Source of the DNA: Balneola sp.
GTDB taxonomy: Bacteria > Bacteroidota > Rhodothermia > Balneolales > Balneolaceae
Assembly (NCBI GenBank): GCA_965284405.1
Contig: OZ260081.1
Span: 2,209,732-2,273,731 of the forward strand
DNA: 64,000 bases
Direction of reading: 5' to 3'
Shown here: positions 4,058 to 58,278 of the stretch, piece by piece
Layout: each line of letters begins with the position of its first letter
Position numbering within the stretch: the stretch's first letter is position 1
Translations under genes and position numbers: made by a program
Notes under the pieces: model-generated
The model's input: the letters and a program-made list of their open reading frames with translations, nothing else
What the model was told of the DNA's origin: nothing
Database searches by the model: none

Positions 4058-7000
4058 ATGAAGGCACGAATTTTCTTACCCATTCTAATAGGCCTGCTGG
4101 CTTCTAGCTTAAGCTATTCTCAATATTTCTCTTATGGGAAAAACAGAGTTCAATATGAAAATTTTGAGTGGAGATATTTACAGTCGAAGCACTTCGATGT
4201 GTATTACTATGGTGAAAAAAATTATAAGCTCGCAGAATTTGCATCCATGAGTGTGGAAAGTGCCTACAAGCAGCTAAAAGATGATTTTGATCATGAACTA
4301 TCAGATCGTATTTCAGTTATTATATATGATTCTCATAATGATTTTTCTCAAACGAATGTAGTAAACCTTCCCACAAGTGCAGAGGGAATAGGTGGCGTAA
4401 CTGACAAGTATAAAAACAGAATGACTATTCCCTTTGATGGAGAATACAGTGATTTCAGACGTACAATACACCATGAGTTAGTGCACGCAGTGTTCAATGA
4501 TATGTTTTACGGAGGGTCGGTTAATTCTATAATTCAAAACAATATTCAGTTAGTATTTCCACTTTGGTTTGAGGAAGGTTTGGCTGAGTACACTGCTTTA
4601 GGTTGGGATACCAATACCGATATGTTTATCAGAGATGCGGTAATTAATAATTATTTACCTCCGATAAGATACCTGAATGGCTATTACGCATATAGAGGAG
4701 GGCAGTCGTTTTGGAATTATATCGTTGAAGAATACGGAAGAGAGAAGATCGCAGAAATTCTTCAAAGCATTAAGACAAGCAGAAGTGTTGAGTATGGATT
4801 AATTACTTCAGTCGGTATGAATGTCGATGAAATCTCGAAAGCATGGACAGAAGCGTTGAAGAAAAGGTACTATCCGGAAGTTGCAGAGAGAGAAAGAGCT
4901 GATGCATTGGCTACGCTTCTCACTGAAAGAGGAGAGTTTGGTTCATACAATACAAGTGCTGCAATTTCTCCACAAGGGGATAAGGTGGCGTTTATTACCA
5001 ACAGCAGAGGATATTTTGATGTAGTGGTAATTAGTACGATCAATGGTAATAAACTAAAAACACTGATCAGAGGTGAAGATAACCCGGATTTCGAAGAACT
5101 GAATATCCTTAATCCGAACCTTACCTGGTCGCCTGACGGCTCTAAAGTTGCTTTATCTACAAAAACAAAAGGCAGGGATGATATTGCAATAATAGATTAT
5201 AACACCAAGGAAATAGAAAAGATCAAATTCCCGAATATAGATGCAATCGGATCAGTTTCTTGGTCACCTGATGGGGCAAAAATAGCATTTGACGGAAATA
5301 TCGGTCCTTTTCAAGATATATTCGTTTTTAATTTGAATACAAAAGAACTGGAAAATCTTACCAGAGATATTTACTCAGATCGAGAACCGGCTTGGTCATC
5401 AGATTCAGAATCGGTGTATTTTGTATCTGATAGAGGAGAGAGCTTAGCATTGGGAGAAACACTTACCAGTTACAGTTTATTCAAGAACAATGGTATGTAT
5501 CAGACAGATATTTACGAAGTGAAAATAGGCACTGACAGGGCTATTCAAATTACAAATAGTCCGTTGTGGAATGAATTCCAACCTATAACTACTCAAAACG
5601 GGAAACTTCTTTTTATTTCAGATGAAAACGGGATTCAAAATCTTAAAGAACTGAACTTAAAAACAAGGACTGCAGTATCAATTACTGATTTACAGACGGG
5701 TATATCTCAGATATCAATAAGTGCTGATGGAAGTAAATTGGCTTTCAATTCAATTAACAATGGGTACTTAGATATTTTCTTGATCAAATCACCTTTAAAT
5801 AAAGAGATCAAAAAACCTATTACAGAAAACTATTGGGCTAAAAGACGCTCTTCAGAATCAGAAGCTCAGAGAGTTCCCGCTACAAAATTTGCTCAGGAAT
5901 TTTTTAAAGAAGGGGTTGTTTCAATCACGGATATAGAAGAAAAAGAGAAAGTTGAAGCAGATTCTATCTTATCTAATAACGAAGAAGATGGCATAGACTT
6001 CAGAAATTATGTGTTTACAGACGATGTACTTCAGGATTCAACGATCTACCTTCAGGATATCGAAGCCTTTACAGTAAGTGACAATTTAACGGAAGATGGC
6101 AGATACGTTCCGCAAGAGTACAGACTTAAATTTGATGTCGATATTGCATACAGCCCATCCTTTGTAGCTTCAACTTATGGTTCCTATGCTCTTACTCAGT
6201 TTATAATCAGCGACTTGCTTGGTGATTATCAATTGTCGCTAGGTACAAATTTTGTTTTCGATTTAAGAGAAAGTGATTATAGTTTCAGGTTTGGAAATCT
6301 AAAGAACAGAACTAATTACTTTATAAGTTACTTTCATACATCAAGAAAGTATCAAAGCTTTTTTGGAGATTTAATACGCTATAGAACCTATGGTTTGGGT
6401 GGCACAGTTCAATATCCATTCGATAAATTCAGCAGGCTTGATTTTAATGTAACCCTGCTAAATGTAGATTTGGATTTTAACTCTGTGATTGATCGTCCTA
6501 ACGGAACCGGAAACTCTTCCTCCGACAGAAGTCAACAAAGTCAATTTTTATATCCTGAACTGGTTTATACCGATGATAAAACGAAACCCGGTTTTATTAC
6601 TCCAAGTGGAGGTTACCGATATTCTGTTGGTTTAAGTGGTAGTCCTGTAATTGGAAAGACAGCACCCGAATTTGCATCAGTTTTGGGAGACTTTAGAAAG
6701 TATTTTGATATGGGATATCAATACACATTTGCTTTAAGATATTCCGGAGCAGCCTCTATAGGTAAAGATTCACAAAACTATTTCTTGGGTGGTAAACTGG
6801 GTTGGCTAAATCAACAATATTCAAATAATGGTTTCTCCAACGACAGAATAACCGATAACTTTTTTACGGTACCAGCCCTTCCATTGAGAGGCTTTGAATA
6901 CAATTCTATCAATGGTAATAAGTTTAGTCTTGTAAATGCAGAATTCAGATTTCCATTGTTTGCAGCACTTGTACCGGGAGCTGTTCCTATTCTGCCTCTA

Positions 7001-7342
7001 TATAATGTTACCGGTCTTGCATTTGTTGATGCAGGAGCCGCTTGGGGACAGACGATAAATTACGGACTTCTTAAAAACCCTGATTTAAATTCTGAATTCG
7101 CAGTAAATGATAAAAAACTGGATTTTACGGTAGCAAAAGAGACTACAGGGTATATACCAAATGGTGATGGTACATTCTCTGAATTCAAATACTTAGACGG
7201 CGATGTGTTAATTGGCGCAGGATTTGGTTTAAGATCAATACTGTTTGGCTTGCCGTTTGGATATGATATTGGTTGGGCTTACGACAGAACCGGTTTTAAA
7301 TCTGATGCCGTTCATTATTTCTCTATAGGAATTGATTTCTAA
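4058..7342 (+). CDS. Omp85/BamA-TamA-family outer membrane protein with N-terminal gluzincin (MA-like) peptidase and PD40/TolB-like beta-propeller
   Basis: Signal peptide. HELVH...EEGLAEY zinc motif. Repeated (W/I)SPDG/WSSD propeller motifs. Omp85 signatures LRGF and FVDAG, terminal Phe (GIDF). Confidence 0.8.
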   Translation: MKARIFLPILIGLLASSLSYSQYFSYGKNRVQYENFEWRYLQSKHFDVYYYGEKNYKLAEFASMSVESAYKQLKDDFDHELSDRISVIIYDSHNDFSQTNVVNLPTSAEGIGGVTDKYKNRMTIPFDGEYSDFRRTIHHELVHAVFNDMFYGGSVNSIIQNNIQLVFPLWFEEGLAEYTALGWDTNTDMFIRDAVINNYLPPIRYLNGYYAYRGGQSFWNYIVEEYGREKIAEILQSIKTSRSVEYGLITSVGMNVDEISKAWTEALKKRYYPEVAERERADALATLLTERGEFGSYNTSAAISPQGDKVAFITNSRGYFDVVVISTINGNKLKTLIRGEDNPDFEELNILNPNLTWSPDGSKVALSTKTKGRDDIAIIDYNTKEIEKIKFPNIDAIGSVSWSPDGAKIAFDGNIGPFQDIFVFNLNTKELENLTRDIYSDREPAWSSDSESVYFVSDRGESLALGETLTSYSLFKNNGMYQTDIYEVKIGTDRAIQITNSPLWNEFQPITTQNGKLLFISDENGIQNLKELNLKTRTAVSITDLQTGISQISISADGSKLAFNSINNGYLDIFLIKSPLNKEIKKPITENYWAKRRSSESEAQRVPATKFAQEFFKEGVVSITDIEEKEKVEADSILSNNEEDGIDFRNYVFTDDVLQDSTIYLQDIEAFTVSDNLTEDGRYVPQEYRLKFDVDIAYSPSFVASTYGSYALTQFIISDLLGDYQLSLGTNFVFDLRESDYSFRFGNLKNRTNYFISYFHTSRKYQSFFGDLIRYRTYGLGGTVQYPFDKFSRLDFNVTLLNVDLDFNSVIDRPNGTGNSSSDRSQQSQFLYPELVYTDDKTKPGFITPSGGYRYSVGLSGSPVIGKTAPEFASVLGDFRKYFDMGYQYTFALRYSGAASIGKDSQNYFLGGKLGWLNQQYSNNGFSNDRITDNFFTVPALPLRGFEYNSINGNKFSLVNAEFRFPLFAALVPGAVPILPLYNVTGLAFVDAGAAWGQTINYGLLKNPDLNSEFAVNDKKLDFTVAKETTGYIPNGDGTFSEFKYLDGDVLIGAGFGLRSILFGLPFGYDIGWAYDRTGFKSDAVHYFSIGIDF

Positions 7343-7346
7343 TAGA

Positions 7347-8639
7347 TCAATTACCGGAGTTAAAACTACCTATGATTAAAAGTCTTTGGTAGTTTTTTTC
7401 AGGATCCAGGTAATAGACAAAAGAATGGTATGACTGCCTGCGATTTGTAATCGAATCATTGATGGGAATGGCAGTGGAATTCGCTGAATTTTCGTACTTC
7501 TGAAAATATTTATATCGATAATTCCCTTCCTTAATTAATACATCAGCCGACCATAAACCGGTATTGGAGTTATAATTCAATTCTGAATCTTTGTCTAATG
7601 TCCAGGAGTTAAAATCTCCTGCTACATATAATTCTGTATTTTCAGTGTTCAACGTTCCTGATTTGAATCTGAATTGAACCTCTGCATATCTGGAATCTCT
7701 GTTCTTTTCAGGTTTACCAAAGTTGGATGAATAGCTTACAGAAGGAGAGGCCGTAAAATTTAATATGTCTCTCTTTAAAATAACTCTGGGAGGGATAAAC
7801 TCAGGCTGCCAATCTTCTATCTTATCTAAATTGATATTTAGATCCGTGAGATCTAAAGGGATAAAATCAAAACCCGATGTAAATAAATTGCTTCTTGGTG
7901 TATAAAATCGAACTTTACCCGGAGATGTGATGTCAAAGGTTTCCGTAGATTTTGCACTTCCCCAAAACCGGTTTTGTACAAATCTAAAAGCCAGATCAAA
8001 TTGCGGAAACTCCACTTCTTCAGGATATTCGTAAATTGAAAAAAGCTGATCTGAAGCTGAAAAATTATTTCCTGAATTATAAAGTGTTTCAACTCTCGAG
8101 GTTATTTTTCCTGCCTGCTCTGTTACAAAAAAGGGGATACTGAAAAGTTTAGTATTTGATGAATAATCAAAAACATTGAGCAAGTAATTACCACTGGATA
8201 TGAATTTCACATTATTATTAGGAAATTCAGCTTTATAGTGAAAATAGTTGGGTTTTGACAGGGAGTTTATTTCTCCTCCAGTAATAATAAGCTCATTAAA
8301 ACCATCTAAATACCAAGCTTCCGGTATATTACTTGGGTTCCAGTTTTGGTCGAAATGTTCAAAGGTAACTCTGAATTGTCCCGAGAGAGAAGTAAGCTCA
8401 TCAAATTCTAAAACAAGCTTTTCTCTATTGTTAAGAGTTATGATAGGAGGATTATTTTGATTCCCTTTTCTGTAAAGTTGAATGCTTTTAAAAGAAGCGG
8501 GCGCGCTCAGCTGATTAGGCACTAAGAGCAACCCTTGATCCTGGTTTTCATCCCGATTCGAATATCTTGTAGAAATTTCGGACGTTCCTGAACACGATAA
8601 AAGAACTACCAAAAAAGAAATAAAGAAATTTCTAAACAT
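7347..8639 (-). CDS. DUF5103 / type IX secretion plug-like lipoprotein with C-terminal CBM48-like domain
   Basis: Lipobox-like LLSC after ATG 8639. N-terminal PII.L..E.L.LEFDEL...F..T.EH.D.NW pattern typical of DUF5103. LYVAGDFNSW...GNYRYKY is CBM48-like. Confidence 0.65.
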   Translation of the reverse strand: MFRNFFISFLVVLLSCSGTSEISTRYSNRDENQDQGLLLVPNQLSAPASFKSIQLYRKGNQNNPPIITLNNREKLVLEFDELTSLSGQFRVTFEHFDQNWNPSNIPEAWYLDGFNELIITGGEINSLSKPNYFHYKAEFPNNNVKFISSGNYLLNVFDYSSNTKLFSIPFFVTEQAGKITSRVETLYNSGNNFSASDQLFSIYEYPEEVEFPQFDLAFRFVQNRFWGSAKSTETFDITSPGKVRFYTPRSNLFTSGFDFIPLDLTDLNINLDKIEDWQPEFIPPRVILKRDILNFTASPSVSYSSNFGKPEKNRDSRYAEVQFRFKSGTLNTENTELYVAGDFNSWTLDKDSELNYNSNTGLWSADVLIKEGNYRYKYFQKYENSANSTAIPINDSITNRRQSYHSFVYYLDPEKNYQRLLIIGSFNSGN

Positions 8640-13358: not shown

Positions 13359-14732
13359 ATGCCGAAATCTAAACCACATATCTTAGTTACAGATGATGAA
13401 CGAGGTATTCGTAACACTCTGAAGGAAATTCTTGAATTCGAAGATTATGAAGTTTCTCTGGCGGAAAGTGGTACAGAAACTTTAGAAATGATCTCCAAAA
13501 ATGAATTCGATTTGTTGTTTTTGGATATCAAGATGAAAGGAATCGACGGCATCGAAACGCTCCGACAAATAAGAACAGCCGGTTTTGAATTTCCGGTAAT
13601 TATGATCTCAGGTCATGGCACCATTGATATTGCCGTGGAAGCAACGAAAATGGGAGCCTTCGATTTTCTTGAAAAACCACCTGACCTGAACAGATTACTT
13701 CTCACAGTCAGAAACGCACTTTCTCAACAGGATCTGGCTAAAGAAGTAAAACAGATCAGAAAAAAGCTTCCTAAGATCCAGGAGATAGTTGGAGAAAGCA
13801 AAGCTATTACTAAGATCAAGGAAATGATCGACAAAGTAGCACCGACACAATCCAGAGTTTTGATCACAGGCGAAAACGGAACCGGTAAAGAGTTGGTAGC
13901 TAAATGGATCCATGAGAAAAGCACGAGAAGTGGAGATGTATTTGTAGAAGTAAACTGTGCTGCAATTCCCTCTGAATTATTAGAAAGTGAGCTTTTTGGT
14001 CATGAGAAAGGAGCTTTTACCGGCGCCAATGAGCAAAGAATTGGTAAGTTTGAGCAAGCTGATGGAGGTACACTCTTTCTGGATGAGATCGGGGATATGA
14101 GTTTAGAAGCACAAGCAAAAGTACTTCGTGCTCTTCAGGAAAATACCATTACGCGGGTTGGAGGAAATGAATCTATCAAAGTTGATGTGAGGATTCTGGC
14201 AGCTACCAATAAAGATCTGCAATCAGAAATTAAAGAAGGAAACTTCAGAGAAGATCTTTTTCACAGAATTAGCGTAATACCGATAGAGGTGCCTAGTTTA
14301 AATGAAAGAGCAGGAGATATTCCGTTAATTGCCAGATCCTGTCTCGAAAAATTAAAGGCAACTGATATAAGCTTTTCATCAGTAGAATTTGATGATTCAG
14401 GATTGAAAGCCCTCAAGAAAAGAAACTGGACAGGAAATGTTCGTGAACTATATAACGCTGTAGAAAGATTAGGTATCTTATCAGCTGACGGTTTAATAGA
14501 TAAGGAGTCTGTAGAAAGTGTATTATCGTCGAAAAAAATAGATGGAAAAGATCTTGGCGGACTTGCAGATGAGACAGATAACTTCCAGGATTTTAAAGAG
14601 ACAGCAGAGCGAATATTTTTGGTTAAACAACTCGAAAAGAACGATTGGAATATTTCTCAAACTGCAGATGCGGTGGGCTTACAGCGCAGTCATATCTACA
14701 ACAAAATGAAAAAATATAATATAGAGCGATAG
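13359..14732 (+). CDS. Sigma-54-dependent response regulator, NtrC/NtrX family
   Basis: REC domain (DDE, LDIKM), Walker A GENGTGKE, ESELFGHEKGAFTGA, FLDEIG, Fis-type HTH. Confidence 0.93.
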   Translation: MPKSKPHILVTDDERGIRNTLKEILEFEDYEVSLAESGTETLEMISKNEFDLLFLDIKMKGIDGIETLRQIRTAGFEFPVIMISGHGTIDIAVEATKMGAFDFLEKPPDLNRLLLTVRNALSQQDLAKEVKQIRKKLPKIQEIVGESKAITKIKEMIDKVAPTQSRVLITGENGTGKELVAKWIHEKSTRSGDVFVEVNCAAIPSELLESELFGHEKGAFTGANEQRIGKFEQADGGTLFLDEIGDMSLEAQAKVLRALQENTITRVGGNESIKVDVRILAATNKDLQSEIKEGNFREDLFHRISVIPIEVPSLNERAGDIPLIARSCLEKLKATDISFSSVEFDDSGLKALKKRNWTGNVRELYNAVERLGILSADGLIDKESVESVLSSKKIDGKDLGGLADETDNFQDFKETAERIFLVKQLEKNDWNISQTADAVGLQRSHIYNKMKKYNIER

Positions 14733-14733
14733 C

Positions 14734-15627
14734 ATGAGTGCAGAAATCATTGATGGTAAAAAAGTAGCAGGACTGGTCAGAGATCGTGTGAGAGAAGATG
14801 TTTCTGACTGGAAAGCAAAAGGTAACAGAGCTCCTTTTCTGCAAGTAGTGTTGGTTGGTGATGATCCTGCGTCAAGAGTGTATACCGGTGCTAAAACAAA
14901 AGCCTGTGAAGATGTAGGTATTGAAACCAAAACAGAGATATTACAAGATACCATCTCGGCTAAGGAATTAAAGGCTTTAATACGAGAGTACAATACTGAC
15001 GACTCTATCGATGGGATTTTAGTTCAGCTTCCCTTACCGTCTCATTTAAGTTCTCATGATGTGATCGAAACTATAGATCACCGAAAAGATGTGGACGGTT
15101 TCCATCCTATGAATGTGGGGAGATTATCTCTGGATCAGCCTTGTTTTAAAAGTTGTACTCCCGCAGGTGTGATGGAATTATTCAAACATTACAGCATTGG
15201 AGTGAAAGCAAAACATGCAGTTGTTGTTGGTGCAAGTAATATAGTCGGCTCGCCAATGGCAACGATGCTTTCCAGAGAGAATTCGTCAGGAAAAGCGACT
15301 ACTACTATTTGTCATAAATACACCAAAGATCTTACTCTGCATACCATTAATGCTGATATTTTGATCGTAGCAGCCGGACAACCACATCTGGTAAAGGCTG
15401 AAATGGTAAAAGAAGGAGCTGTTATTGTGGATGTGGGCATCAACAGAGTAGCTGATGAAACTTCCGAAAAAGGGTACAAGTTAGTTGGGGATGTAGACTT
15501 TGAATCCGTAAAGAAAAAAGCCAGCTGGATCACACCTGTTCCTGGTGGGGTTGGCCCAATGACAGTAGCAATGCTGATGAAAAATACTCTCCTTGCTGCC
15601 AAGAAGAGTATTTATCCGGTTGATTAG
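14734..15627 (+). CDS. folD: Bifunctional methylenetetrahydrofolate dehydrogenase/cyclohydrolase
   Basis: [34 protein letters not shown] motifs. Confidence 0.97.
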   Translation: MSAEIIDGKKVAGLVRDRVREDVSDWKAKGNRAPFLQVVLVGDDPASRVYTGAKTKACEDVGIETKTEILQDTISAKELKALIREYNTDDSIDGILVQLPLPSHLSSHDVIETIDHRKDVDGFHPMNVGRLSLDQPCFKSCTPAGVMELFKHYSIGVKAKHAVVVGASNIVGSPMATMLSRENSSGKATTTICHKYTKDLTLHTINADILIVAAGQPHLVKAEMVKEGAVIVDVGINRVADETSEKGYKLVGDVDFESVKKKASWITPVPGGVGPMTVAMLMKNTLLAAKKSIYPVD

Positions 15628-15629
15628 TC
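15453..15629 (+). repeat. Direct repeat copy 1 (177 bp): folD 3' end plus 2 nt
   Basis: Aligns without gaps to 16614-16790 with 6 mismatches. Confidence 0.95.
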
Positions 15630-16559
15630 AATTCTTTTATAAATGATAGAACTGGAAGAAAGGTTACCACTTGTAAATATTTCATATTTTTGTAAACCTT
15701 CATTAGGTATAAATACTACTTCTCCTCCCCAACTGCCTTCGGATGGACAAATTAAACTGTCAACTTTAAAGCCACATCCAGAGTATAATCTTTTTAGCTC
15801 CGAATCTGACCAATTATAGGGTGGAACATCTAAATTCGGAAGGTATAAAAACATACGTTTAAAGAAAGACTGATCTGTAGATTTTAAAATGCCATTTTCT
15901 AGGCTTGTAGTAAATTTTTCAGTAGTTATTGTGTTTGGGAAAGTTTCAGTTACTAAAGTATCATTTCCATTCGCTACTCTTTTATAGTAGTAATGTAAAA
16001 TTTTCTCTTTGGTATACTCAAAACTATATCCATTTTTAGATTCTCTTTCAGTTTTTAACTCTTTGTCAAATTTTAAAGTTATAGTGCTTTCTGAATAAAT
16101 TTCCTCCAAACCATGAGCTGGAGCTAAACTATAATTAAAAATTAAACTAAATTTCCATATTGCACCCTCTTCTATAAGAATTAAAGAGTTGTCAATATTG
16201 TCCATAATGATTGGTTCAATAGCTAAACTGTCAACTTCTCCATCAAACGTTATTTTCTTTATATCTGAGTAAATAACTATGTTGTTTTCAAGAGGGAGTT
16301 TGCTTTGAATTTCGATTGTATCATTTATACTTACTAGATCATCAAATTCGAATTCGTATTTACCGTAACCATATGTTAGGGTTTTGTATTCACTGGTTCC
16401 TATTTTTAAAAATACTTCAGCACTATCTACACCATAATTGGGATAAATCCCTCCATCACCAACGACTATTCCAGAAATAATGTACTTACTAGTACTTTTA
16501 GAATTATTAACCGAACACCCTAGAATAGGTAATAAAAAGAGAAATACAATTTTTTTCAT
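15624..16559 (-). CDS. Hypothetical lipoprotein (cargo between the folD repeats)
   Basis: MKK + hydrophobic stretch + lipobox ILGC. Very AT-rich, no recognised domain. Confidence 0.7.
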   Translation of the reverse strand: MKKIVFLFLLPILGCSVNNSKSTSKYIISGIVVGDGGIYPNYGVDSAEVFLKIGTSEYKTLTYGYGKYEFEFDDLVSINDTIEIQSKLPLENNIVIYSDIKKITFDGEVDSLAIEPIIMDNIDNSLILIEEGAIWKFSLIFNYSLAPAHGLEEIYSESTITLKFDKELKTERESKNGYSFEYTKEKILHYYYKRVANGNDTLVTETFPNTITTEKFTTSLENGILKSTDQSFFKRMFLYLPNLDVPPYNWSDSELKRLYSGCGFKVDSLICPSEGSWGGEVVFIPNEGLQKYEIFTSGNLSSSSIIYKRID

Positions 16560-16613
16560 TGTATAACTTATTATTTAATGATCAGTTAATCAATTTATAA
16601 GAGTGGTTAATAT

Positions 16614-16790
16614 TGATGAAACTTCTGAAAAAGGGTACAAGTTAGTTGGGGATGTAGACTTTGAATCCGTAAAGAAAAAAGCCAGCTGGATCACACCTGT
16701 TCCTGGTGGGGTTGGTCCAATGACAGTAGGTATGCTGATGAAAAATACTCTCCTTGCTGCTAAGAAGAGTATTTATCCTGTTGATTAGTC
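16614..16790 (+). pseudogene. folD: Displaced/duplicated folD 3' fragment (direct repeat copy 2)
   Basis: Encodes [16 protein letters not shown]...SIYPVD*, identical to the FolD C-terminus except one Ala->Gly. No upstream folD sequence. Confidence 0.93.
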
Positions 16791-17201
16791 TAAAGTTCCT
16801 ATTTGAAGTTCCTTTGCTGCTTTTATAAGTGTTTTATCGAAAGTAAATATTTTAAGATTATTTTCAGAAGCAGCTGCTAGATGTAAAGCATCTAAAGTTC
16901 GAAGAGGGGTTGAGGTGGAAGAAAGCAAAATCTCAGCGTTTGAAAATACTAAGCTATCTAAATCCAAAACCTTGAAAATACCAATGCTTATATGATCTTT
17001 AAACAAAGCATATATTTTCTTTACTGAGGAATTAGATAGTTCATTCATTCTGGCTCTCTTTTTTAAGGAAGAAAGCATTTCTATTATGGTGAGTCTGCTT
17101 ATAAAGACATCAGGACTTTTATTGATCAGCTGATCTACATGGTTAGAATTTGTTTCATCAATGTAAAAAGCGAAAAGACAACTTGTATCTATATACATCA
17201 A
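16785..17201 (-). CDS. vapC: Type II TA toxin, VapC/PIN domain
   Basis: PIN acidic residues in [19 protein letters not shown] and TFD. 138 aa, overlaps the antitoxin stop. Confidence 0.9.
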
Positions 17202-17440
17202 TACTTGTCTTCCTTTCTCATGTCAATTACAAACTCTGACATAGGTTTTCCCTTTACTTTAAATTGCTTTCTGAATTCCGTCATATTGGGAAGTTTATTT
17301 TTCCTGGGTTCGTTATAGTTCACCAGCTTGGCAATTGGTTTGTTGTGTTTAGTGATTATGATTTCTTCACCATTTTCAGCTGCCGCCAAATATTTTGCTA
17401 ACTCTTCTCTAACTTGATTTACAGGGACTTTTTTCATCAC
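17198..17440 (-). CDS. Type II TA antitoxin, Phd/YefM family
   Basis: VNQVREELAKYLAAAENGEEIIITKHNKPIAKLV is a classic Phd N-terminal fold. Lies upstream of vapC. Confidence 0.9.
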   Translation of the reverse strand: MMKKVPVNQVREELAKYLAAAENGEEIIITKHNKPIAKLVNYNEPRKNKLPNMTEFRKQFKVKGKPMSEFVIDMRKEDKY

Positions 17441-17446
17441 AATTTA

Positions 17447-17470
17447 TTTATGTACATAAATAATGTACAT
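17447..17470. promoter_or_regulatory. Putative antitoxin operator: two TGTACA palindromes
   Basis: Perfect 14-bp palindrome TTTATGTACATAAA (17447-17460) and ATGTACAT (17463-17470) immediately 5' of the phd/yefM start. TGTACA is the YefM operator core. Confidence 0.7.
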
Positions 17471-17490
17471 AAATCTCATTGATATTCAAA

Positions 17491-18030
17491 TCAGTTCTCA
17501 CTCGATTCAGCAACTGAAATATTTTTGGGATACATCTTTATTATCAGTTGTTTTTGCGAGCTATTGTTTACAAGCGATTTGAATTCAATTCCAAATTCTG
17601 AAATAGAAGCCTCGTTCCTAAGCTGTTTATAGGTTCCCATCACTTCATCAAGCATATCGATATAAACCTTATATGGTGTTTCTCGCTGAGTTTTTAAAGA
17701 TATAATGGCTTTTTGAGGAGAGTCTGATAGTTCAGGATCTTTTCCTCTGTTATTTATGAACTCCCTGAGGATTGGTTTTACTTCTTCGATCAATACAGGT
17801 TTATCATCCATCCTGATCAACCCATCAGCATTGACAAGAATATTCATGAGATTTCTTTCGTGTATTTGAGGTCTGTCGTCTTGAATGGGGGGAGGCAGTA
17901 CTAAAGATATCCCGGTATCTACATTGATGGTTGTAGTAACCAGAAAAAAGATGAGCAGTAAAAAAGCAATATCAGCCATAGAAGAGCCATTTATAGAAGC
18001 TTTTTCACGGATTGGTTTGTTATTGAACAT
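17491..18030 (-). CDS. exbD: Biopolymer transport protein ExbD/TolR family
   Basis: MADIAFLLLIFFLVTT transmembrane motif with conserved Asp. Confidence 0.88.
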   Translation of the reverse strand: MFNNKPIREKASINGSSMADIAFLLLIFFLVTTTINVDTGISLVLPPPIQDDRPQIHERNLMNILVNADGLIRMDDKPVLIEEVKPILREFINNRGKDPELSDSPQKAIISLKTQRETPYKVYIDMLDEVMGTYKQLRNEASISEFGIEFKSLVNNSSQKQLIIKMYPKNISVAESSEN

Positions 18031-18092
18031 AGTAAACTCCTTAATTTATAAAGTTATACTATATATAAGCTCATTATTAACATGGTATTCAG

Positions 18093-18149
18093 TAGCATTT
18101 AAATGCTATTAGAATAATTTTAAAAAAGAGGGTGACACTATGCTGTCAC
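18093..18149. promoter_or_regulatory. Two inverted repeats in the divergent exbD/hypothetical promoter region
   Basis: Perfect 16-bp palindrome TAGCATTTAAATGCTA (18093-18108) and GTGACA-N6-TGTCAC (18132-18149). Confidence 0.45.
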
Positions 18150-18196
18150 TATGTATGATTAAGTTTGGGTAAACAATAAAACAAAACCCAATTATC

Positions 18197-18544
18197 ATGA
18201 CGCTTCATGCACTTACAACTCCGGCAATCTCTAAAAAATCAGAAACTAAACTTTTTGTTGCTCCACTTTTAAATCGTATCAAAAAAGAAAGCAAACAAGA
18301 GTTTGTAGAAATGCAGCAGACCTTTGATTTAATGGGTTGGGGAGAATTACCTGATGAATTGAAGATCGAGATCTATGATGACGTTCGCTTCATGGTTCAG
18401 GAATTAAAAGGCTATTATTCAAGCTGTGACCAGTTTGTTCAGCAAAGAAGAAACACAGTTCACTTTTGGGTAAGTAGCTTTCAGGATGGAATTTGCTCTC
18501 TGGAAGCCGCCATTAAAGCGTTGAAAGTGAAATCTCTTGCATGA
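18197..18544 (+). CDS. Hypothetical protein
   Basis: 115-aa ORF filling the gap with an A-rich leader. No recognised domain. Confidence 0.7.
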   Translation: MTLHALTTPAISKKSETKLFVAPLLNRIKKESKQEFVEMQQTFDLMGWGELPDELKIEIYDDVRFMVQELKGYYSSCDQFVQQRRNTVHFWVSSFQDGICSLEAAIKALKVKSLA

Positions 18545-30649: not shown

Positions 30650-31237
30650 ATGAAAAGAAGAATATTTCCAATGTTGTTGTTTGTTTTTGGACTAGTAACA
30701 ATACTTCAGGCACAAACACCAAAAGAAGAGATCAAAACATTATTAGAACAAAGAGATCAACAAGTGAAGACTTTGCTCGGCCCAAAAGGTTCTGAATATA
30801 GTGACGAACAAAGAGCTGAAATAAAAGATATCATTAACGGAGTTATTGATTTTGAATCTATGGCTAAATACGCTCTTGAAGATACTTATGATACTTTGAG
30901 TACTGAGATTCAAACTGAATTCGTTGAACTATTTGCTACAATAGTAAGAGATCAATCGTTAAATAAATTAGATATATATCGTGCAGAGGTTACCTATAAT
31001 TCTATTACAGTTGATGGAAGTGAGGCGATGGTAAAAACTTTTGCAGAGCTGGATGACATCAGAACACCTGTGGATTATACAATGGTAATGAAAGGGGATG
31101 AGTGGGTAATTACAGACCTTATTCTGGATGAGGTTTCTACGGCCGAATCTTATAATCGTCAGTTCCAGCGTATTATTAAAAGGAAGGGCTTTGAATCATT
31201 ATTAAGTACATTGAGAAAAAGAGCAGCCAGAAGTTAG
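30650..31237 (+). CDS. MlaC/ttg2D/HpnM-like periplasmic lipid-binding protein
   Basis: Signal peptide, IDFESMAKYALE, F.ELF, VDY...W.ITDLILDEVS...SYNRQF..II pattern of the MlaC family. Confidence 0.85.
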   Translation: MKRRIFPMLLFVFGLVTILQAQTPKEEIKTLLEQRDQQVKTLLGPKGSEYSDEQRAEIKDIINGVIDFESMAKYALEDTYDTLSTEIQTEFVELFATIVRDQSLNKLDIYRAEVTYNSITVDGSEAMVKTFAELDDIRTPVDYTMVMKGDEWVITDLILDEVSTAESYNRQFQRIIKRKGFESLLSTLRKRAARS

Positions 31238-32085
31238 TGGATACAAAAGCCTCTTTAATAGTCCGGTCATTTAACAGACTTCCTGCATTACTAGAGTTGC
31301 TTGACGTTTTAAGAACTCAGAAATACAAGAACTTTGAAATTATAATTGTTGAACAATCAACCAATTATGAGGGTAAAGATTGGGAGAAACTCAATGAGAT
31401 CGAAGCTGAAGATCATAGAATAAAGCTCCTAAAATATACACCACTCGGAGGGCCTAAAGCTCGAAATGAAGGGGTAAAAAATGCTACGGGTGAAATTTTA
31501 ATTTTTATTGATGATGACGATCTTCCTTTTTCAGATCAATGGGTTGCAGAGCATGTAGAAGCTTACAAAGACCCTATGCTAATAGGTTTTACCGGTAGAC
31601 ATGTACTAAACGATAAAACCGGAGATCCATATAAGGATTGGGTAAAACCCTTTTTTAAGAAAAAGTGTATGAGATATAGCTATTTAAAATTCCCATATAC
31701 ATATGCACAACTTAAAGTAAATATAAAGGGTGTTGAATGGTTACATGGTACTAATTCATCAGTGCGTAGAAAATGGGCAATCAAAGCCGGGCTTTGGGAC
31801 GAAGATATAAGACACCAGGATGAGCACTCTTTCGCTTTTAAACTAAATCGTATCTTAGATGAAAATCATCATATTGATTTCAGACAAAAACCCGAGTTAA
31901 TCAGGAGGACCGATATAAGCGGTGGAATGAATAAAAGAAACTTTAATATGATCGATGAATTTAAGAATCAACTTAATTTCTGCTTTAAAGTAATTTATAG
32001 ATATCATAAGCATCTGATAATCCTATTCCCATTTCATATTGCATCGGTGGTCATAAAGACGGTTAAGTTTAAAATAATGAATTAG
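31237..32085 (+). CDS. Glycosyltransferase family 2
   Basis: LIVRSFNR...EIIIVEQ, ARNEGVKNATGEILIFIDDDD (DxD). Confidence 0.9.
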   Translation: MDTKASLIVRSFNRLPALLELLDVLRTQKYKNFEIIIVEQSTNYEGKDWEKLNEIEAEDHRIKLLKYTPLGGPKARNEGVKNATGEILIFIDDDDLPFSDQWVAEHVEAYKDPMLIGFTGRHVLNDKTGDPYKDWVKPFFKKKCMRYSYLKFPYTYAQLKVNIKGVEWLHGTNSSVRRKWAIKAGLWDEDIRHQDEHSFAFKLNRILDENHHIDFRQKPELIRRTDISGGMNKRNFNMIDEFKNQLNFCFKVIYRYHKHLIILFPFHIASVVIKTVKFKIMN

Positions 32086-32138
32086 AAATGCTGATAATTT
32101 ATAGTAATTCTTACATAGGTTAATCAGAATACTATTCC

Positions 32139-33275
32139 ATGAAAATAGCATTTGTCTCTGATCAAATATATCCAAGAACATCCGCTGATGCAGAGCAGAT
32201 TGTGTCTTCCTTATCTGCACTAGGTAAGACTTCTGAAGTTACACTTATTAGTTTTTGTTACAGTTATTCAAAGAAAGCCGATAAAACTGATATAGAAAGT
32301 TACTTTGGGAAAGAATGTACTTTCGAGTTAAGGTTTGTATCAACTTTATTTAGAAATATCAGAAGTTTTGAAAAAGTGTATTTCGCGCTAAAATCAGTCT
32401 TTCTCTTTGGGACAAAAGATTTCGACGTATTCTATACTAGAAATATCCCTGTTTTAATTGCATTTATGCTATTTACAAAGAAGCGTTTGGTTTTCGAATC
32501 TTACAGACCATGGCCTGATAGAAATTTCCAATCCAGATTATTATTCAAGAAGCTTTCTAAAAACCAGAGATTACTTGGTATCATAACACATTCAGATTTT
32601 GCAAAGCAGAGTTTTCTTGATGCAGGATTTGGTAATGAAGATCTATTAGTTGCTCACAATGCATTTGATATTGATGAGTACAACCCTGATACAGAAGAGG
32701 AAATAAGAAAGGAGCTACAGATACCTCTGAATAAGTTATTAGTTACTTATTCAGGACGAATTTCAGCAAAAAAAGGATTAGACAGGTTTATAAGATTAGC
32801 GGAAAGGAATCCTGAGGTACAGTTTCTATTGGTAGGATCAGAGAAGAGAGGTTCTATTGAGAAGGCTGCAGAAGAGTTGGAAAATGTAATGGTATTAGGT
32901 TGGTTAAAGAAGGACTATGTATTTTCTTTGTTGAAGGCATCGGATATTCTGTATATACCACCAACTTTAATTGCAAGAGATAAAGTAGGGAATACGGTAC
33001 TCCCGCTTAAGACATTTATTTATAAAGCTTCAGGAACTTCAATTTTTGCTCCTAACTCAGAAGATGTATCTGAAGTATTATCTCATAAGAAAACAGCTTA
33101 TTTAGTTAAGCCGGATGATTGGGAAGAAGAAGAAAAAGGATTCAGAGAATTAATTAGCGACAAGCAATTACGAATTTTGCTTGGGAAAAACGCTAAGGAA
33201 GAAATGCTAAAGAATACCTGGGAAAACAGAGCTAATGAGATTCTGAACTTTATAAAAAGATCTATCTCAGCTTAG
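32139..33275 (+). CDS. Glycosyltransferase family 4
   Basis: GT-B fold, VTYSGRISAKKG and PLKTFIYKASG variant of the ExxxxxxxE motif. Confidence 0.85.
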   Translation: MKIAFVSDQIYPRTSADAEQIVSSLSALGKTSEVTLISFCYSYSKKADKTDIESYFGKECTFELRFVSTLFRNIRSFEKVYFALKSVFLFGTKDFDVFYTRNIPVLIAFMLFTKKRLVFESYRPWPDRNFQSRLLFKKLSKNQRLLGIITHSDFAKQSFLDAGFGNEDLLVAHNAFDIDEYNPDTEEEIRKELQIPLNKLLVTYSGRISAKKGLDRFIRLAERNPEVQFLLVGSEKRGSIEKAAEELENVMVLGWLKKDYVFSLLKASDILYIPPTLIARDKVGNTVLPLKTFIYKASGTSIFAPNSEDVSEVLSHKKTAYLVKPDDWEEEEKGFRELISDKQLRILLGKNAKEEMLKNTWENRANEILNFIKRSISA

Positions 33276-34743
33276 TTCTTAACCGGTTTATCTTTTCGAG
33301 TCCTAAGATCCCACCAACAATTAAGATTATACCAATCGTTTGAACAAACGGATTTTTTATAAACTCGAAGCTGTCATAATTGTTCAGATAGCTGAATAGT
33401 AAAAAAGAAGTAGCTGCAAAGCCGGCTAAATGGGCTCTGAATACTTCTTTAAAATACATTTTAGCTTTAGCTACAAATCTAGCTTCTGCCATTTCAAAGC
33501 AAATGAGTATAAACATTGCCATTGCTGAAGCTGAAGCGGCTCCGATTATTCCAAATTCCGGTATCAAAAGTAAGTTCAATACAATGTTAGAAGAAGCTAC
33601 GATTACGCTGTTCATCAGGTTGAGCTTTGAATGTCCTGTCATAGCAACAATATTTCCTGCCAAGCTAAATGAACAATATAAGTAGGGAATAGGCAGTAGA
33701 TAGAACATAAAAGATGAATCTCCTCCATATTCGGGATGTATAAGGATCAATAAATGATCTTTAAAAACAGTGATTAAAAGAATTATTGGGAATGCAATAG
33801 TTGTGATCCAGGATGCGGTTTTTGAAAAATGATGGGAAAGCTCTTCAAATTTATTTTCTTTGTGTAGCCTAACTATAAATGGGTTAAAGGCTGTTGAAAA
33901 GATCATTTTAACCGAGCGGATCTCTCTGATAAGCATTGAACCCGCTCCATAAAATCCAACAACTGCCGGACCAAATCCAAATGCAGGCAGCATTAAAATA
34001 TCAATTCCGGTAATAAATCGGTTTAACGTCATATTTAAGCTCTGAGGAATTGCAAATTCTACGAGCTCGGAATTGATTTTAAAATTTCTGAATGTTAAAA
34101 GAAGCTTCTTCCAACTAAATAGTTTGCTATAAATAACCAGAGAGATCAAAAACAGTAAAGCCTGACAAGAGAAATAAGCCAATGCCATTCCTGTAACCGT
34201 TGGTGATACGAACCAGAAGAGAATTGAAAATATTAGTAATGCAATAGGACGTATCCATCCATTATTGATAGCATCGTATTTCATAATCTTTAATCCTTGA
34301 GTTGATGCTAAAACAATACGTTCAAATGCCATCAAAGGAATTGACAAGATCATAATTTGGAATATGGTGATCAAAGAGGAAGAGAATTCATCTTGATATA
34401 TCATTTCCAAAAGTTGGACACCAAATAGAATTGAAAATGTGAATACAAGTAGAGAAAGCCCTACGCTCCATAAGAATGCATTTGAAAGCGCAGTATATAA
34501 TTCTTGTTGATCATTTTTGCTATCCGAAAATCGGGAAACAAAAATCAATGCTCCATCTTTAAATCCGGAAGTCAAAAATGCGATGATTATTTCAATGGCT
34601 ATATTTGCAGTTATATAGATTCCGAAAACCTCAGGACCATAAAGCCGATTAACAATTATAAGGAAAGCAGGAGCAGCCATTTTTCCCACCACTCCGAAAA
34701 AGTTAACAAAAGCCCCTTTTTTAAGTTCTTTAGATACGCTCAT
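33262..34743 (-). CDS. Wzx/MOP-family oligosaccharide flippase
   Basis: About 12-14 TM helices, YGPEVFGIY, NIVLNLLLIPEFGIIGAA C-terminal motif. Confidence 0.88.
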   Translation of the reverse strand: MSVSKELKKGAFVNFFGVVGKMAAPAFLIIVNRLYGPEVFGIYITANIAIEIIIAFLTSGFKDGALIFVSRFSDSKNDQQELYTALSNAFLWSVGLSLLVFTFSILFGVQLLEMIYQDEFSSSLITIFQIMILSIPLMAFERIVLASTQGLKIMKYDAINNGWIRPIALLIFSILFWFVSPTVTGMALAYFSCQALLFLISLVIYSKLFSWKKLLLTFRNFKINSELVEFAIPQSLNMTLNRFITGIDILMLPAFGFGPAVVGFYGAGSMLIREIRSVKMIFSTAFNPFIVRLHKENKFEELSHHFSKTASWITTIAFPIILLITVFKDHLLILIHPEYGGDSSFMFYLLPIPYLYCSFSLAGNIVAMTGHSKLNLMNSVIVASSNIVLNLLLIPEFGIIGAASASAMAMFILICFEMAEARFVAKAKMYFKEVFRAHLAGFAATSFLLFSYLNNYDSFEFIKNPFVQTIGIILIVGGILGLEKINRLRTKLR

Positions 34744-35872
34744 GCTCTCTTATGGCTTCTTCGTATAATTCTTCTAGCTTCTTTACCTGATTAAAAAGGT
34801 CGTATTCTTTTTCCATTTTCAAACGTGAAGCTTTACCAAATTTCTTAATCAACTCCGGTTGTTGAATGAATAATTTCATTTTCTGAACAAGCTCAGGGAT
34901 ATTCCTTTCAGGAATTAAAAAACCTGTTTTCCCATTATCTATGATCTCATGAATTCCCCCGTGCCAGGTTCCAATGGCGGGTACACCTACGCTACCTGCT
35001 TCCTTAATTACTATTAATCCGCTTTCTCTGTCTTGATCAAAAGCTACGACGCTTGGTGCAACCAGTACATCCGAAGATTTTAAAACCTCTGAAACTTCTT
35101 CAGGTGTTAGAATTCCTTTAAATGTCACATGTGTTGAGAGATCGTTTTCCTCAACAAATTTCAGAGCTTTGGTTTTTAAATCTCCTGACCCAATAAAAGT
35201 TAAAGAAGCATTCATCCCATCTTTAATAATTTTATTAAAGGCTCTTAAAACATATAAATGAGCTTTTTTAGGGGTGAACCTGCCTATCATTACAAAATTG
35301 ACCTGTTCCGCAGGGTTAGGTTCCTGATAGCCAAATTTTGAGAGATCGATCCCAAGATGATAAACTTTCACTTTAGCCGGATCTGCCCCTAGCTCAATTA
35401 ACAATGCTCGTAATTCTTCGCTTGCTGCTAAAAGTAAAGTTGCATGGTCAAAAATCTGTTTGTGTTTTAAGTAATAACGCCATCTTTCAGATTTGTACTT
35501 CTGTAAACCCATTAATGAAGCAACATCAACTCCATGAAAAGTGACTACGAAGGGTATCTTGAATTTCTTTACATAGGGCAAAGCATAAACGGCTCCGAAT
35601 CCAAAATGAGCATGAACCAGATCAAAGTTACCATTACCTATAATTTTTTTAAATGAAGGCCAATAAGCTATGTTTTGGTATATGATCTCAAATAATTTTC
35701 CTTTGGGTTTATGAAACTGATCGTATGGAAATCGGTCTTCATTCTGCCGGTCTTTGCAAAATACAGTTATATCATAATTTTCTGAATGGGCTCTTATTTC
35801 ATCGTAAAGAAAAGTTTGAGAATAAGGCAGAAACGACGTAGAAAATAAAGCGATCTTCCTCGTTGGAGGCAT
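34730..35872 (-). CDS. Glycosyltransferase family 4 (WcaL-like)
   Basis: HAHFG, TFHGVD, GRFTPKK, ESGLIVIKEAG motifs. Confidence 0.9.
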   Translation of the reverse strand: MPPTRKIALFSTSFLPYSQTFLYDEIRAHSENYDITVFCKDRQNEDRFPYDQFHKPKGKLFEIIYQNIAYWPSFKKIIGNGNFDLVHAHFGFGAVYALPYVKKFKIPFVVTFHGVDVASLMGLQKYKSERWRYYLKHKQIFDHATLLLAASEELRALLIELGADPAKVKVYHLGIDLSKFGYQEPNPAEQVNFVMIGRFTPKKAHLYVLRAFNKIIKDGMNASLTFIGSGDLKTKALKFVEENDLSTHVTFKGILTPEEVSEVLKSSDVLVAPSVVAFDQDRESGLIVIKEAGSVGVPAIGTWHGGIHEIIDNGKTGFLIPERNIPELVQKMKLFIQQPELIKKFGKASRLKMEKEYDLFNQVKKLEELYEEAIREHERI

Positions 35873-36006
35873 GCTTGGATATATAATTCGAAATTGCTAG
35901 AAGATAATAAATTGATACTCTAAAACGATTTATATTTTAACCGTTAAATGATGTATATTTTCGACCGATTAAGCCAAATTAAATTAATTTTTTTGAACGT
36001 CTTTTA

Positions 36007-37176: not shown

Positions 37177-37180
37177 AGTA

Positions 37181-38650: not shown

Positions 38651-38692
38651 AAAATAACTTCTTGTTATAAAGTTTAATAAGCATTCAGTGTA

Positions 38693-40501: not shown

Positions 40502-40697
40502 TTATATAAAAATTTTATCGTTCAATGAATGTGGAAATATAGGGAATTATCAGTCAAGAGAATCTTTAATATTGATACAGATCCTGCAACAGGAGAGACA
40601 GCTAAGATTATTTTATTTATAAACAGGAAACTTTTAACATCACTTTGTTTAATTGCGTATCTTTCTGAGATTAGATTTTTAAACAAAAAAAGAAATA

Positions 40698-42743: not shown

Positions 42744-42773
42744 GTTGAATTAAGATTCGCTTAGCTTATCTAT

Positions 42774-58165: not shown

Positions 58166-58278
58166 GGTGTGCATTTACTGATTTTGCATTGGGATTTTAC
58201 GTTCCGCGGGTCTGAGAACCTGTTGTATAGTAAAAATAATCGTTGATCTTTCGAAACGGAAGTGTTTTCAATTTTGGG

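Follow-up and report, generated by a model that had tools for sequence, protein, structure and literature searches.

The elements e14 and phage 21 supply a replacement 3' end of icd, and integrase-less cis-mobilisable elements bounded by att sites are known from streptococci. The att site of phage 21 is located inside icd of E. coli, with e14 found at the same locus (PMC12803456). Circular, non-replicating DNA entering the E. coli genome by a single crossover produced duplications of the homologous gene end of 109-950 bp (PMC3240628). The 3' ends of Rhs genes and T6SS effectors are the subject of a displacement model of the HFIR (homology-facilitated illegitimate recombination) type (PMC5361080).

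The locus described here is found at folD in a stretch of 64,000 nt from Balneola sp., termed the window. It shares with e14 and phage 21 at icd the duplicated 3' end of a metabolic gene, an intact working gene and a displaced fragment with mostly silent differences. The latter elements, however, are integrase-encoding prophages and have a defined att core. The cargo at folD amounts to only 984 bp, and no integrase was found in it; the flanking copies are identical in sister strains, and the allele difference of the window clone reaches beyond the repeat. A small integrase-less insert with direct repeats at a housekeeping gene 3' end is also typical of the streptococcal cis-mobilisable elements, but these carry short att sites of a known integrative conjugative element family, which is found at the same site in relatives; neither an element of this type nor an integrase was found at folD in the Balneolaceae loci examined. 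As in Campbell-type insertion-duplication (PMC3240628), the duplication length equals the shared homology (109-950 bp there, 177 bp here), a perfect empty site is regained when the repeats recombine and the insert is lost, and a reciprocal allele mosaic is present in one strain (X5). That system is an engineered laboratory plasmid, whereas the folD locus is natural, a circle was not observed and the allele tract of the window clone is longer than the repeat. In HFIR or C-terminal displacement, described for Rhs genes and for T6SS effector-immunity arrays of Vibrio cholerae (PMC5361080), a conserved gene is likewise the homologous anchor with new DNA behind it, the old 3' end becomes a downstream orphan without any recombinase, and the event recurs at one locus (at folD, L002 is the second case). 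The folD locus differs in its anchor (a housekeeping enzyme gene instead of a polymorphic toxin gene), in its 3' ends (near-identical alleles instead of different toxin tips) and in its cargo of one lipoprotein gene, and neither a founding donor nor a microhomology at J2 was observed for it.

Our preferred reading, with a probability of roughly 0.62, is a strain-variable single-gene insertion by folD-anchored homology, formed without a recombinase and later reshuffled by recombination. The folD/lipoprotein locus would represent a clean natural case of an accessory gene added beside an essential gene without dedicated mobile-element machinery, with the duplicate gene end kept 'fresh' by recombination with the functional alleles of the population.

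Layout of the folD locus and its empty site

The features of the locus are given below in window positions. Joint J1 is located between 15629 and 15630, joint J2 between 16613 and 16614.

14734..15627, plus strand: folD, intact, 297 aa (NCBIfam FolD equivalog NF008058, E 5e-111)
15015..15618, plus strand: 'alpha' folD allele tract of the window clone, 17 differences from the 'beta' allele
15453..15629, plus strand: repeat copy 1, working folD 3' end and 2 nt past the stop codon
15624..15629: TTAGTC, candidate junction microhomology at J1
15624..16559, minus strand: predicted cargo lipoprotein gene, 311 aa, lipobox LLPILGC, no known family
15630..16613: insert, 984 bp, GC 29%, missing in empty-site genomes
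16560..16613, minus strand: upstream region of the lipoprotein gene, 54 bp, probable promoter, ending at J2
16614..16790, plus strand: repeat copy 2, displaced folD 3' fragment, contiguous with vapC as in empty-site genomes
16785..17201, minus strand: vapC, PIN-domain toxin (Pfam PIN, E 4e-18), convergent to folD
17198..17440, minus strand: antitoxin of the vapBC pair, phd/yefM-type (Pfam PhdYeFM_antitox, E 9e-12)

A repeat search returned one direct repeat of 177 nt (15453-15629 and 16614-16790; 97% identity, spacing 1161), and a per-site listing confirmed the ungapped alignment with six mismatches given in the preliminary description. Repeat and insertion are real; the insert itself, however, comprises 984 bp, and the 1161 bp first assigned to it are the repeat period. 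The last 175 nt of folD are inside copy 1. Copy 2 contains a remnant ORF (16603..16788, 61 aa), which matches profile positions 236-283 (out of 285) in a PHROGs FolD family. The folD locus is syntenic across 40+ Balneolaceae loci; vapC is the ancestral neighbour of folD, and the folD-vapC arrangement is the same in L003, L007 and L082. The GC content of the insert is 29%, compared to 37% for the window. TTAGTC represents the last Asp codon and the stop codon of both the lipoprotein gene (15624..15629) and vapC (16785-16790). An Rfam scan of 14000-18500 gave no match, and a sigma-70 promoter and terminator scan of the locus did not beat shuffles.

For a MAG-like sequence, an assembly artefact or a tandem duplicate decaying neutrally is an a priori possibility; for this locus, both are refuted. 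Both joints were reproduced in at least eight public runs; runs of three or more studies showed 0 differences, and a single unitig (15525-16656) crosses both joints with 0 differences in X15, X16, X1 and X2. The repeat core was covered 44.8x (collapsed, about 2x) compared to ~20x for the flanks, while the insert was near flank depth. The structure is not an assembly artefact of the kind considered in the preliminary description. All population evidence was obtained from Logan unitigs (k=31), in which rare variants are dropped and which break at the 177-bp repeat, so that the assignment of variants to a copy leans on depth and adjacent markers.

The empty site with one copy, as predicted beforehand, was found in L003 and in five metagenome runs (X10, X11, X12, X13 and X14). 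In L003, folD abuts vapC (folD ...GTTGATTAGTC directly followed by TAAAATTCC vapC); the five runs join folD straight to vapC, with an insert depth of zero. X10 reaches 400x with a 17.8-kb contig at the empty site, and contigs join 15453 to 16615 in X11 and X10. The empty-site allele equals copy 2 except at 16730.

Allele states and shared joints across strains

The six mismatches between the copies (copy 1/copy 2) are 15465 C/T, 15555 C/T, 15569-70 CA/GT, 15600 C/T and 15618 G/T. Codon position 3 is the site of five of these six mismatches, copy 2 having T in each case. The mismatches are exactly those initially described; the codon at 15569-70 reads Ala (GCA) in copy 1 and Gly (GGT) in copy 2. 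Position 16730 is C in X3, X5, X17 and X11 (GCT, Ala), so the original copy difference at this codon was silent (GCA/GCT); judged by these strains, the Gly codon of copy 2 (G at 16730, Ala to Gly) is a later mutation private to the window clone. All original copy differences (5/5) are silent, with P about 5e-4 if mutation is random, and each state is found in other genomes. The earlier view of the copies as two natural functional-type folD alleles, and not as a neutrally decaying duplicate, is therefore upheld. A further point against neutral decay is that copy 2, as far as covered, was free of indels in lineages with up to ~7-10% divergence. Neither indels nor stops were detected in copy 2 of the window, or in those parts of copy 2 that the X3, X5, X17, X25 and X28 contigs cover. 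Copy 2 may also be under selection in its own right, whether as a promoter, a 3' end or a peptide.

The alpha tract of the window clone (15015-15618) is contiguous and shows 17 differences (2.8%) from the beta allele, 16 of them synonymous. It starts 440 bp upstream of the repeat and crosses the left repeat boundary at 15453. The beta allele is carried by the sister strains and the empty-site genomes (shared differences in X3, X5, X17 and X11; X10). X3 and X4 harbor the same insert between identical copies (beta/beta), and the copies flanking this insert in X17 are identical as well, with two additional variants present in both. X5 is a reciprocal mosaic, in which copy 1 (C,C,A,T,T) is alpha on the left and beta on the right, and copy 2 (T,T,T,C,G) is beta on the left and alpha on the right. 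In X25, which has the same joints, T is found in copy 1 and C in copy 2 at 15465 and 15600, the opposite of the window. Given the different arrangement of the same silent polymorphisms in X25 and the reciprocal mosaic of X5, the allele states have been reshuffled after the joints formed. Outgroup polarisation of the alpha/beta sites with L001, L003, L081, L002 and L004 gave no consistent ancestral allele. Alpha-type markers were detected in insert-bearing strains only, the empty sites being beta in 5/5 cases; this would also fit an alpha allele arriving with the insert.

In the earlier reading, an e14/phage-21-like element arrived with a 3' end of its own and left the allele difference as its footprint. 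This interpretation is not supported: X3, X4 and X17 carry the insert with identical copies, the alpha tract is wider than any 1161-bp circle, the silent polymorphisms are rearranged in X25 and X5, and no integrase was found in the scanned window ORFs or the examined folD-downstream ORFs of relatives. For genome scans, silent-only divergence of a gene end from its displaced copy does not, on its own, indicate a phage-like element. Filled, empty, homogenised and mosaic forms of the folD locus are all public, and the locus could therefore be used to measure gene-conversion and recombination tracts in an uncultured marine lineage.

J1 and J2 are crossed without indels in X3, X4, X17, X5, X25 and X28. 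The insert is 3.4% diverged in X25 (flanks 4.4-9.9%) and 6.8% in X28 (flanks 7.8-9.6%). Between the window and X3, 2/1073 differences were counted in the insert compared to 84/4858 in the flanks (P about 2e-6), a contrast that indicates spread by recombination; the nearly identical young segment comprises 15619-16792, about the insert and one repeat copy. Since lineages with as much as ~8-10% divergence share identical joints, a single old event is likely, and the joints likely formed once and then spread via homologous recombination and gene conversion. A rather doubtful alternative treats the 1161-bp unit as an integrase-free mobile cassette, which would loop out via the 177-bp repeats and re-enter by a single RecA crossover. 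Re-entry would be possible into any genome of the species complex, with the essential folD end as a portable homology arm. Such a cassette, if it exists, would explain both the same joints in lineages up to ~8-10% diverged and the lower divergence of the insert compared to its flanks.

The model of the preliminary description, taken literally, is a 1161-bp circle with its own folD 3' allele that was integrated by a Campbell-type crossover, left the alpha/beta difference as its footprint and may still pass from strain to strain as a circle, the 177 bp acting as a portable homology arm. We regard it as unlikely, even though the reciprocal mosaic of X5 is the exact expectation for a single crossover between two alleles, the young segment shared with X3 almost equals the insert plus one repeat copy, alpha markers are confined to filled strains and duplications of this kind were seen experimentally after single crossovers of circles (PMC3240628). 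The alpha tract, beginning at 15015, 440 bp upstream of the repeat, is too wide for the circle, and an all-alpha copy 1 next to an all-beta copy 2 needs a crossover within the last 11 of 177 nt. The identical copies in X3, X4 and X17 and the opposite allele arrangement at two sites of X25, with the same joints, are further points against it. The boundaries of the young segment also fit ordinary recombination limited by heterology, together with a beta copy 2 devoid of internal markers.

The lipoprotein gene and its relatives

As initially described, a convergent lipoprotein gene is the sole cargo; the only ORF of the insert (15624..16559, minus strand) encodes 311 aa with the N-terminus MKKIVFLFLLPILGCS, which includes a lipobox. 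The gene is convergent to folD, and the stop codons of both overlap. No match to the protein was obtained in Pfam, PHROGs or NCBIfam, a word-indexed protein search returned the query alone and an exact-sequence contig look-up gave no match. AlphaFold yielded a poor model (pLDDT 48.5), in which a moderately confident beta-sandwich is limited to residues ~26-123, and a Foldseek search with this model gave no match at E <= 1e-3. An exhaustive HMMER search identified a single true homolog, P0002, which has 27-29% identity to the cargo protein over the full length, carries a lipobox and is aligned stop-to-stop. P0003 was set aside as a weak repeat-protein match.

L161 and L162 are syntenic loci in which P0002 directly adjoins folD in convergent orientation. 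Judged by this gene order, a native donor arrangement, with folD convergent to this lipoprotein family, exists in a distant Balneolaceae lineage. For the window allele, the donor form (lipoprotein gene beside folD without copy 2) was not found; it was seen only for the 27%-identical homolog. In L161, a phd remnant is kept beyond P0002; a folD remnant between the two was looked for and not found.

The same locus bears on the polarity of the event. With reversed polarity, the lipoprotein gene would be the resident, and an incoming 'folD 3' fragment + vapBC' would have entered through an illegitimate joint at J2 and a homologous one further downstream. The homolog in the same slot beside folD in L161, with the phd remnant beyond, would agree with this, as would the identity of copy 2 and vapC to the empty-site genomes. 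This reading is nevertheless improbable, given that folD-vapBC is present without the lipoprotein gene in L003, L007, L082 and abundant near-identical strains, that none of 16 runs contained a genome with the lipoprotein gene but without copy 2 and vapBC, and that the tail of copy 1, VD*-TC, is the one typically seen in folD alleles linked to vapC.

Behind a DUF2911 gene, L002 harbors a displaced folD 3' remnant of its own (82 nt, 92.7%, indels present), and its functional folD ends in a different tail. A start of this remnant at the folD position matching 15453 was considered and dropped, the left extension not being significant (82/500 shuffles reached the score). A metagenome-contig scan with FolD revealed no further filled loci and one close relative, L081, in which folD is directly followed by exbD.

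Recombinase searches and the route of insertion

No Pfam match to recombinase or transposase families was found in 49 of the 51 window ORFs of at least 120 aa (folD was typed via NCBIfam). A recombinase was likewise absent from the Pfam-scanned ORFs downstream of folD in relatives and not apparent among the ORFs listed at 11 Balneolaceae loci, in agreement with the term "integrase-less" used previously; nor did these scanned or listed ORFs reveal an intact, integrase-bearing element at this site. A transposon, IS or MITE is not indicated either, with a duplication of 177 bp and neither a transposase nor a second insert copy found in the window. The sub-terminal inverted repeat of the insert is weak, its score being reached by 34/2000 shuffles and 24/3000 real 40-mer pairs (p about 0.01-0.02). 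In the viral contigs searched, 77/80 FolD matches were full-length folD, and neither the lipoprotein family nor a Balneolaceae-type folD fragment was present. In one unrelated viral contig, L224, phage-side DNA is fused to a C-terminal fragment of FolD.

A decayed site-specific integrative element, either e14/phage-21-like or an integrase-less cis-mobilisable remnant, with its att site in the folD 3' end and an integrase acting in trans, would have the observed layout of a duplicated gene 3' end, cargo between the copies and a displaced fragment left behind. The second, independent displaced fragment with different cargo in L002 and the fusion in L224 could be read in the same way. Such an element is highly improbable in view of the scans of the window, of the folD-downstream ORFs of relatives and of the viral contigs. 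Moreover, the repeat is perfect in some strains, its length is that of the entire shared homology, with no short conserved core, and the left edge of the L002 remnant is not demonstrably at 15453.

In the preferred reading of folD-anchored homology, the founding joints would most likely have formed once, with the folD 3' end as homology, and a site-specific recombinase would not have acted at any step. For the recombination route of this founding event, we infer two candidates. A fragment consisting of the folD 3' end and the lipoprotein gene may have been circularised and integrated by a RecA-type single crossover, which is one of two viable origins of the joints. Alternatively, a one-sided homologous exchange may have been combined with an illegitimate second joint, as in HFIR ('C-terminal displacement'). 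Features expected for the former are an insert between direct duplications that equal the shared homology and a single copy at the empty site, both of which are found here. Reciprocal chimerism of the copies is present in X5 and not in X3, X4 and X17, and can be mimicked by later recombination. As for HFIR, cargo beside the anchor gene in a donor is seen at the family level (P0002 at L161 and L162), and orphan 3' fragments of the anchor gene are represented by copy 2 and by the decayed independent remnant in L002. A candidate microhomology, TTAGTC, is common to the lipoprotein and vapC tails at J1.

The variant would persist as a presence/absence polymorphism in the marine Balneola species complex and move between strains by homologous recombination. 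We also infer the direction of every later exchange. Sequence exchange with functional folD alleles would continue in both repeat copies, in copy 1 through its role as the working gene end and in copy 2 through its colinearity with the 'folD 3' end-vapC' of the common empty-site genomes; copy 2 would be open to gene conversion from copy 1 as well. Ongoing exchange with functional alleles would lead to copies that differ at silent sites only. In the window clone, copy 1 would be part of an imported allele tract of ~600 bp (15015-15618). Whether the founding event is assumed to have occurred with identical or with different copies, each reading costs one extra event.

Structure of the folD locus

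The 3′ end of folD was found twice by a repeat search of the window, as a 177-nt direct repeat (97% identity) at 15453-15629 (copy 1) and 16614-16790 (copy 2), 1161 bp apart. The window is from a Balneola (Balneolaceae), and the nearest genome loci are those of Balneola MAGs (FolD identity 94-99%). The features concerned are as follows.

14734-15627, plus strand: folD, intact (FolD equivalog match), with copy 1 as its end
15630-16613: insert between the copies, 984 bp, GC 29% compared to 37% for the window
15624-16559, minus strand: lipoprotein gene, sole ORF of the insert, 311 aa, with a lipobox
Downstream of the insert: vapC (PIN), a phd-type antitoxin gene and exbD, all convergent to folD

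The stop codons of folD and the lipoprotein gene overlap (15622-15629). The vapC and phd/yefM-type toxin-antitoxin pair (16785-17440) directly abuts folD, the vapC stop overlapping the folD stop. GAC TAA ends the lipoprotein gene as well as vapC, encoded in each case by the final six bases of the respective repeat copy. The same arrangement of vapC next to folD is found in three other loci (L003, L007 and L082) at a vapC identity of only about 34%, which points to an old, fast-evolving neighbour of folD.

The duplication and insert reported in the preliminary description were recovered with 0 differences in Logan contigs of four public sequencing runs (X15, X16, X1 and X2) from at least three studies. 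Both joints lie within one unitig (15525-16656), the depth of the collapsed repeat core is about double that of the flanks (44.8 versus approximately 20), and the insert is near flank depth. Copy-to-copy comparison also reproduced the six mismatches listed there, five of them in third codon positions, where copy 2 has T throughout.

Empty sites and allele states among strains

In L003, a relative with an empty site, folD passes straight into vapC (...GTTGATTAGTC/TAAAATTCC). This shows the junction of copy 2 with vapC to be the ancestral one and leaves J1 (15629/15630) on the left and J2 (16613/16614) on the right as the new joints. Near-identical strains with an empty site were present in five metagenome runs (X10 to X14), all with an insert depth of zero; the contigs of X10 (17.8 kb, 400x) and X11 omit exactly 1161 bp. 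Their single-copy allele is that of copy 2, except for C at 16730. As this C is also found in the other runs examined there (X3, X5, X17 and X11), the Gly codon of the window arose later as a private mutation. This leaves five original differences, every one of them silent (P about 5e-4 if mutation were random). The proposal that two folD alleles are present, rather than a neutrally decaying duplicate, is thus upheld.

Alleles were defined at 15465, 15555, 15570, 15600 and 15618, alpha being the copy-1 states of the window (C,C,A,C,G) and beta T,T,T,T,T.

Site occupancy and allele states of the repeat in sequencing runs
X10-X14: empty; one beta copy
X3, X4: filled; both copies beta, the 176-nt repeat being a single unitig at 2x depth
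X17: filled; copies identical, with two additional variants in common (15534T, 15537G)
X5: filled; copy 1 C,C,A,T,T and copy 2 T,T,T,C,G (reciprocal mosaic)
X7: filled; a further mosaic
X25: filled; at 15465 and 15600, T in copy 1 and C in copy 2, the reverse of the window

In addition, the copy-1 tail of X25 (window 15622-15629) reads GAC TAA for GAT TAG, two changes that are synonymous in each of the overlapping frames.

J1 and J2 are crossed without indels in all filled strains and were intact even in X25 (insert diverged 3.4%, flanks 4.4-9.9%) and X28 (6.8% and 7.8-9.6%, respectively). It is therefore most likely that a single founding event made the joints, and this insert variant now extends over species-level lineages. 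In a comparison of X3 with the window, 2 of 1073 insert sites differ, against 84 of 4858 flank sites (P about 2e-6); the insert has thus moved between strains by recombination. Since the silent-site states are arranged differently between the copies among lineages with the same joints, they were reshuffled after the founding event, and the alpha/beta pattern of the window cannot be read as its footprint. In the common empty-site genomes, the folD 3′ end and vapC are colinear with copy 2 and vapC. A simple cause of the reshuffling would be that imports from such genomes, together with conversion from copy 1, repeatedly replace copy 2 by functional-type sequence.

Origin of the insert

The preliminary description had proposed Campbell-type integration of a small circle in the manner of e14 and phage 21. 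These elements are characterized by an integrase and their own copy of the target's 3′ end; the folD insert fails to match them on both points, and a phage-like integration is not supported. Recombinase and transposase families gave no match in the window ORFs of at least 120 aa, of which 49 out of 51 were scanned, nor in the scanned ORFs downstream of folD in relatives. No relative of the lipoprotein was found in viral contigs, where 77 of 80 FolD matches are full-length genes. One high-GC viral contig (IMGVR_UViG_3300042569_001379, L224:5350-8186) has an ORF in which unrelated sequence leads into a FolD C-terminus (the last approximately 117 aa), with an oligopeptidase A gene behind it; possibly a prophage entered the folD gene of some unrelated bacterium. 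Transposon features are likewise absent, with no second copy of the insert in the window, and an Rfam scan of 14000-18500 gave no match. A weak, imperfect sub-terminal inverted repeat (15634-15654, CTTTTATAAATGATAGAACTG, and 16583-16603, CTCTTATAAATTGATTAACTG) has a score matched by 1.7% of shuffles and 0.8% of real 40-mer pairs. Its left arm is coding, while the right arm, 24-44 nt upstream of the lipoprotein start, is probably within the promoter.

The lipoprotein had no match in Pfam, PHROGs or NCBIfam and none but itself in a word-indexed protein database, and its predicted structure was a poor model with no significant fold match. P0002 was the one true homolog in an exhaustive HMMER search; at E 3e-17, it is 27-29% identical along the full length and likewise has a lipobox. 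It is encoded in two Balneolaceae loci (L161 and L162) approximately 72-76% identical to the window, natively and directly convergent to folD and in the same order (S13 peptidase, sigma-54 regulator, folD, lipoprotein, ... guaB), with no folD remnant beside it. The two C-termini can be aligned codon by codon, stops included (...YKRID* and ...YRIIN*), which shows the lipoprotein ORF to be complete and makes TTAGTC a candidate junction microhomology. In L161 (7560-9887), vapC is absent and a phd antitoxin remnant of 33 aa is located 312 nt past the start of the P0002 gene; in this lineage, too, the lipoprotein gene thus came to lie between folD and what was once a vapBC pair.

The layout is the expected product of a single crossover with circular DNA sharing 177 bp with the chromosome, as in E. 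coli, where such crossovers gave lacZ-end duplications of 109-950 bp (PMC3240628). It is equally expected from homology-facilitated illegitimate recombination displacing the old 3′ end, the mechanism that has been suggested to act at T6SS effector and Rhs loci (PMC5361080). Evidence leaning towards a crossover between alleles is the mosaic in X5 and the restriction of alpha to filled strains; the length of the alpha tract, the identity of the copies in some strains and the differing X25 arrangement lean towards later reshuffling. As to this tract, X3, X17 and X11 show almost no differences to the window from about 13850 to 15014, followed by a difference block at 15015-15417 common to X3, X5, X17, X11 and X10. 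Together with the five repeat sites, the block comprises 17 differences in 604 nt (2.8%), 16 of them synonymous. The copy-1 allele of the window is a contiguous tract crossing the left repeat boundary (15453), hence a 1161-bp circle was not its source. Either an ordinary homologous-recombination tract that stops where heterology begins, or the incoming DNA's homologous arm, would look like this. The locus adds one more case to a known kind of event, and the population data make it unusually easy to read.

The variable slot after folD

The slot following folD is variable across the family.

Genes following folD in the window and related loci
Window, L003, L007, L082: vapBC
L002, L008, L028: DUF2911 proteins
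L004: BNR/sortilin-domain protein
L001: ORF cluster resembling, by ORF sequences, an ECF-sigma/anti-sigma set (one ORF scanned, no Pfam match)
L081: exbD directly, nothing between

L002 is an independent case in another Balneola genome. There (6894-7809), folD is followed by a DUF2911 gene (6944-7624, plus strand), a decayed folD 3′ remnant (about 7700-7809) and exbD. The remnant, 82 nt with 92.7% identity to its own folD and two 1-nt deletions (frameshifts), retains the common YPE* end, whereas the working folD ends in YPEQ*. Displacement of the folD end thus happened at least twice.

A second small variable slot is located nearby (window 18078-18129), where the X25 contig has 522 extra letters between exbD and a 115-aa ORF; in the matching exbD interval, L002 has a MarR-family gene. 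Farther downstream, a polysaccharide biosynthesis cluster (31237-43820) encodes GT1, GT2 and GT4 glycosyltransferases, two flippase-type proteins, inositol-1-phosphate synthase and a nucleotidyltransferase. A 608-aa AAA_15/AAA_21 ATPase (55428-57251, minus strand; E 9e-88, OLD/AbiEii-like), possibly an anti-phage defence protein, is encoded next to a DUF1801/OmdA protein gene (57587-58174).
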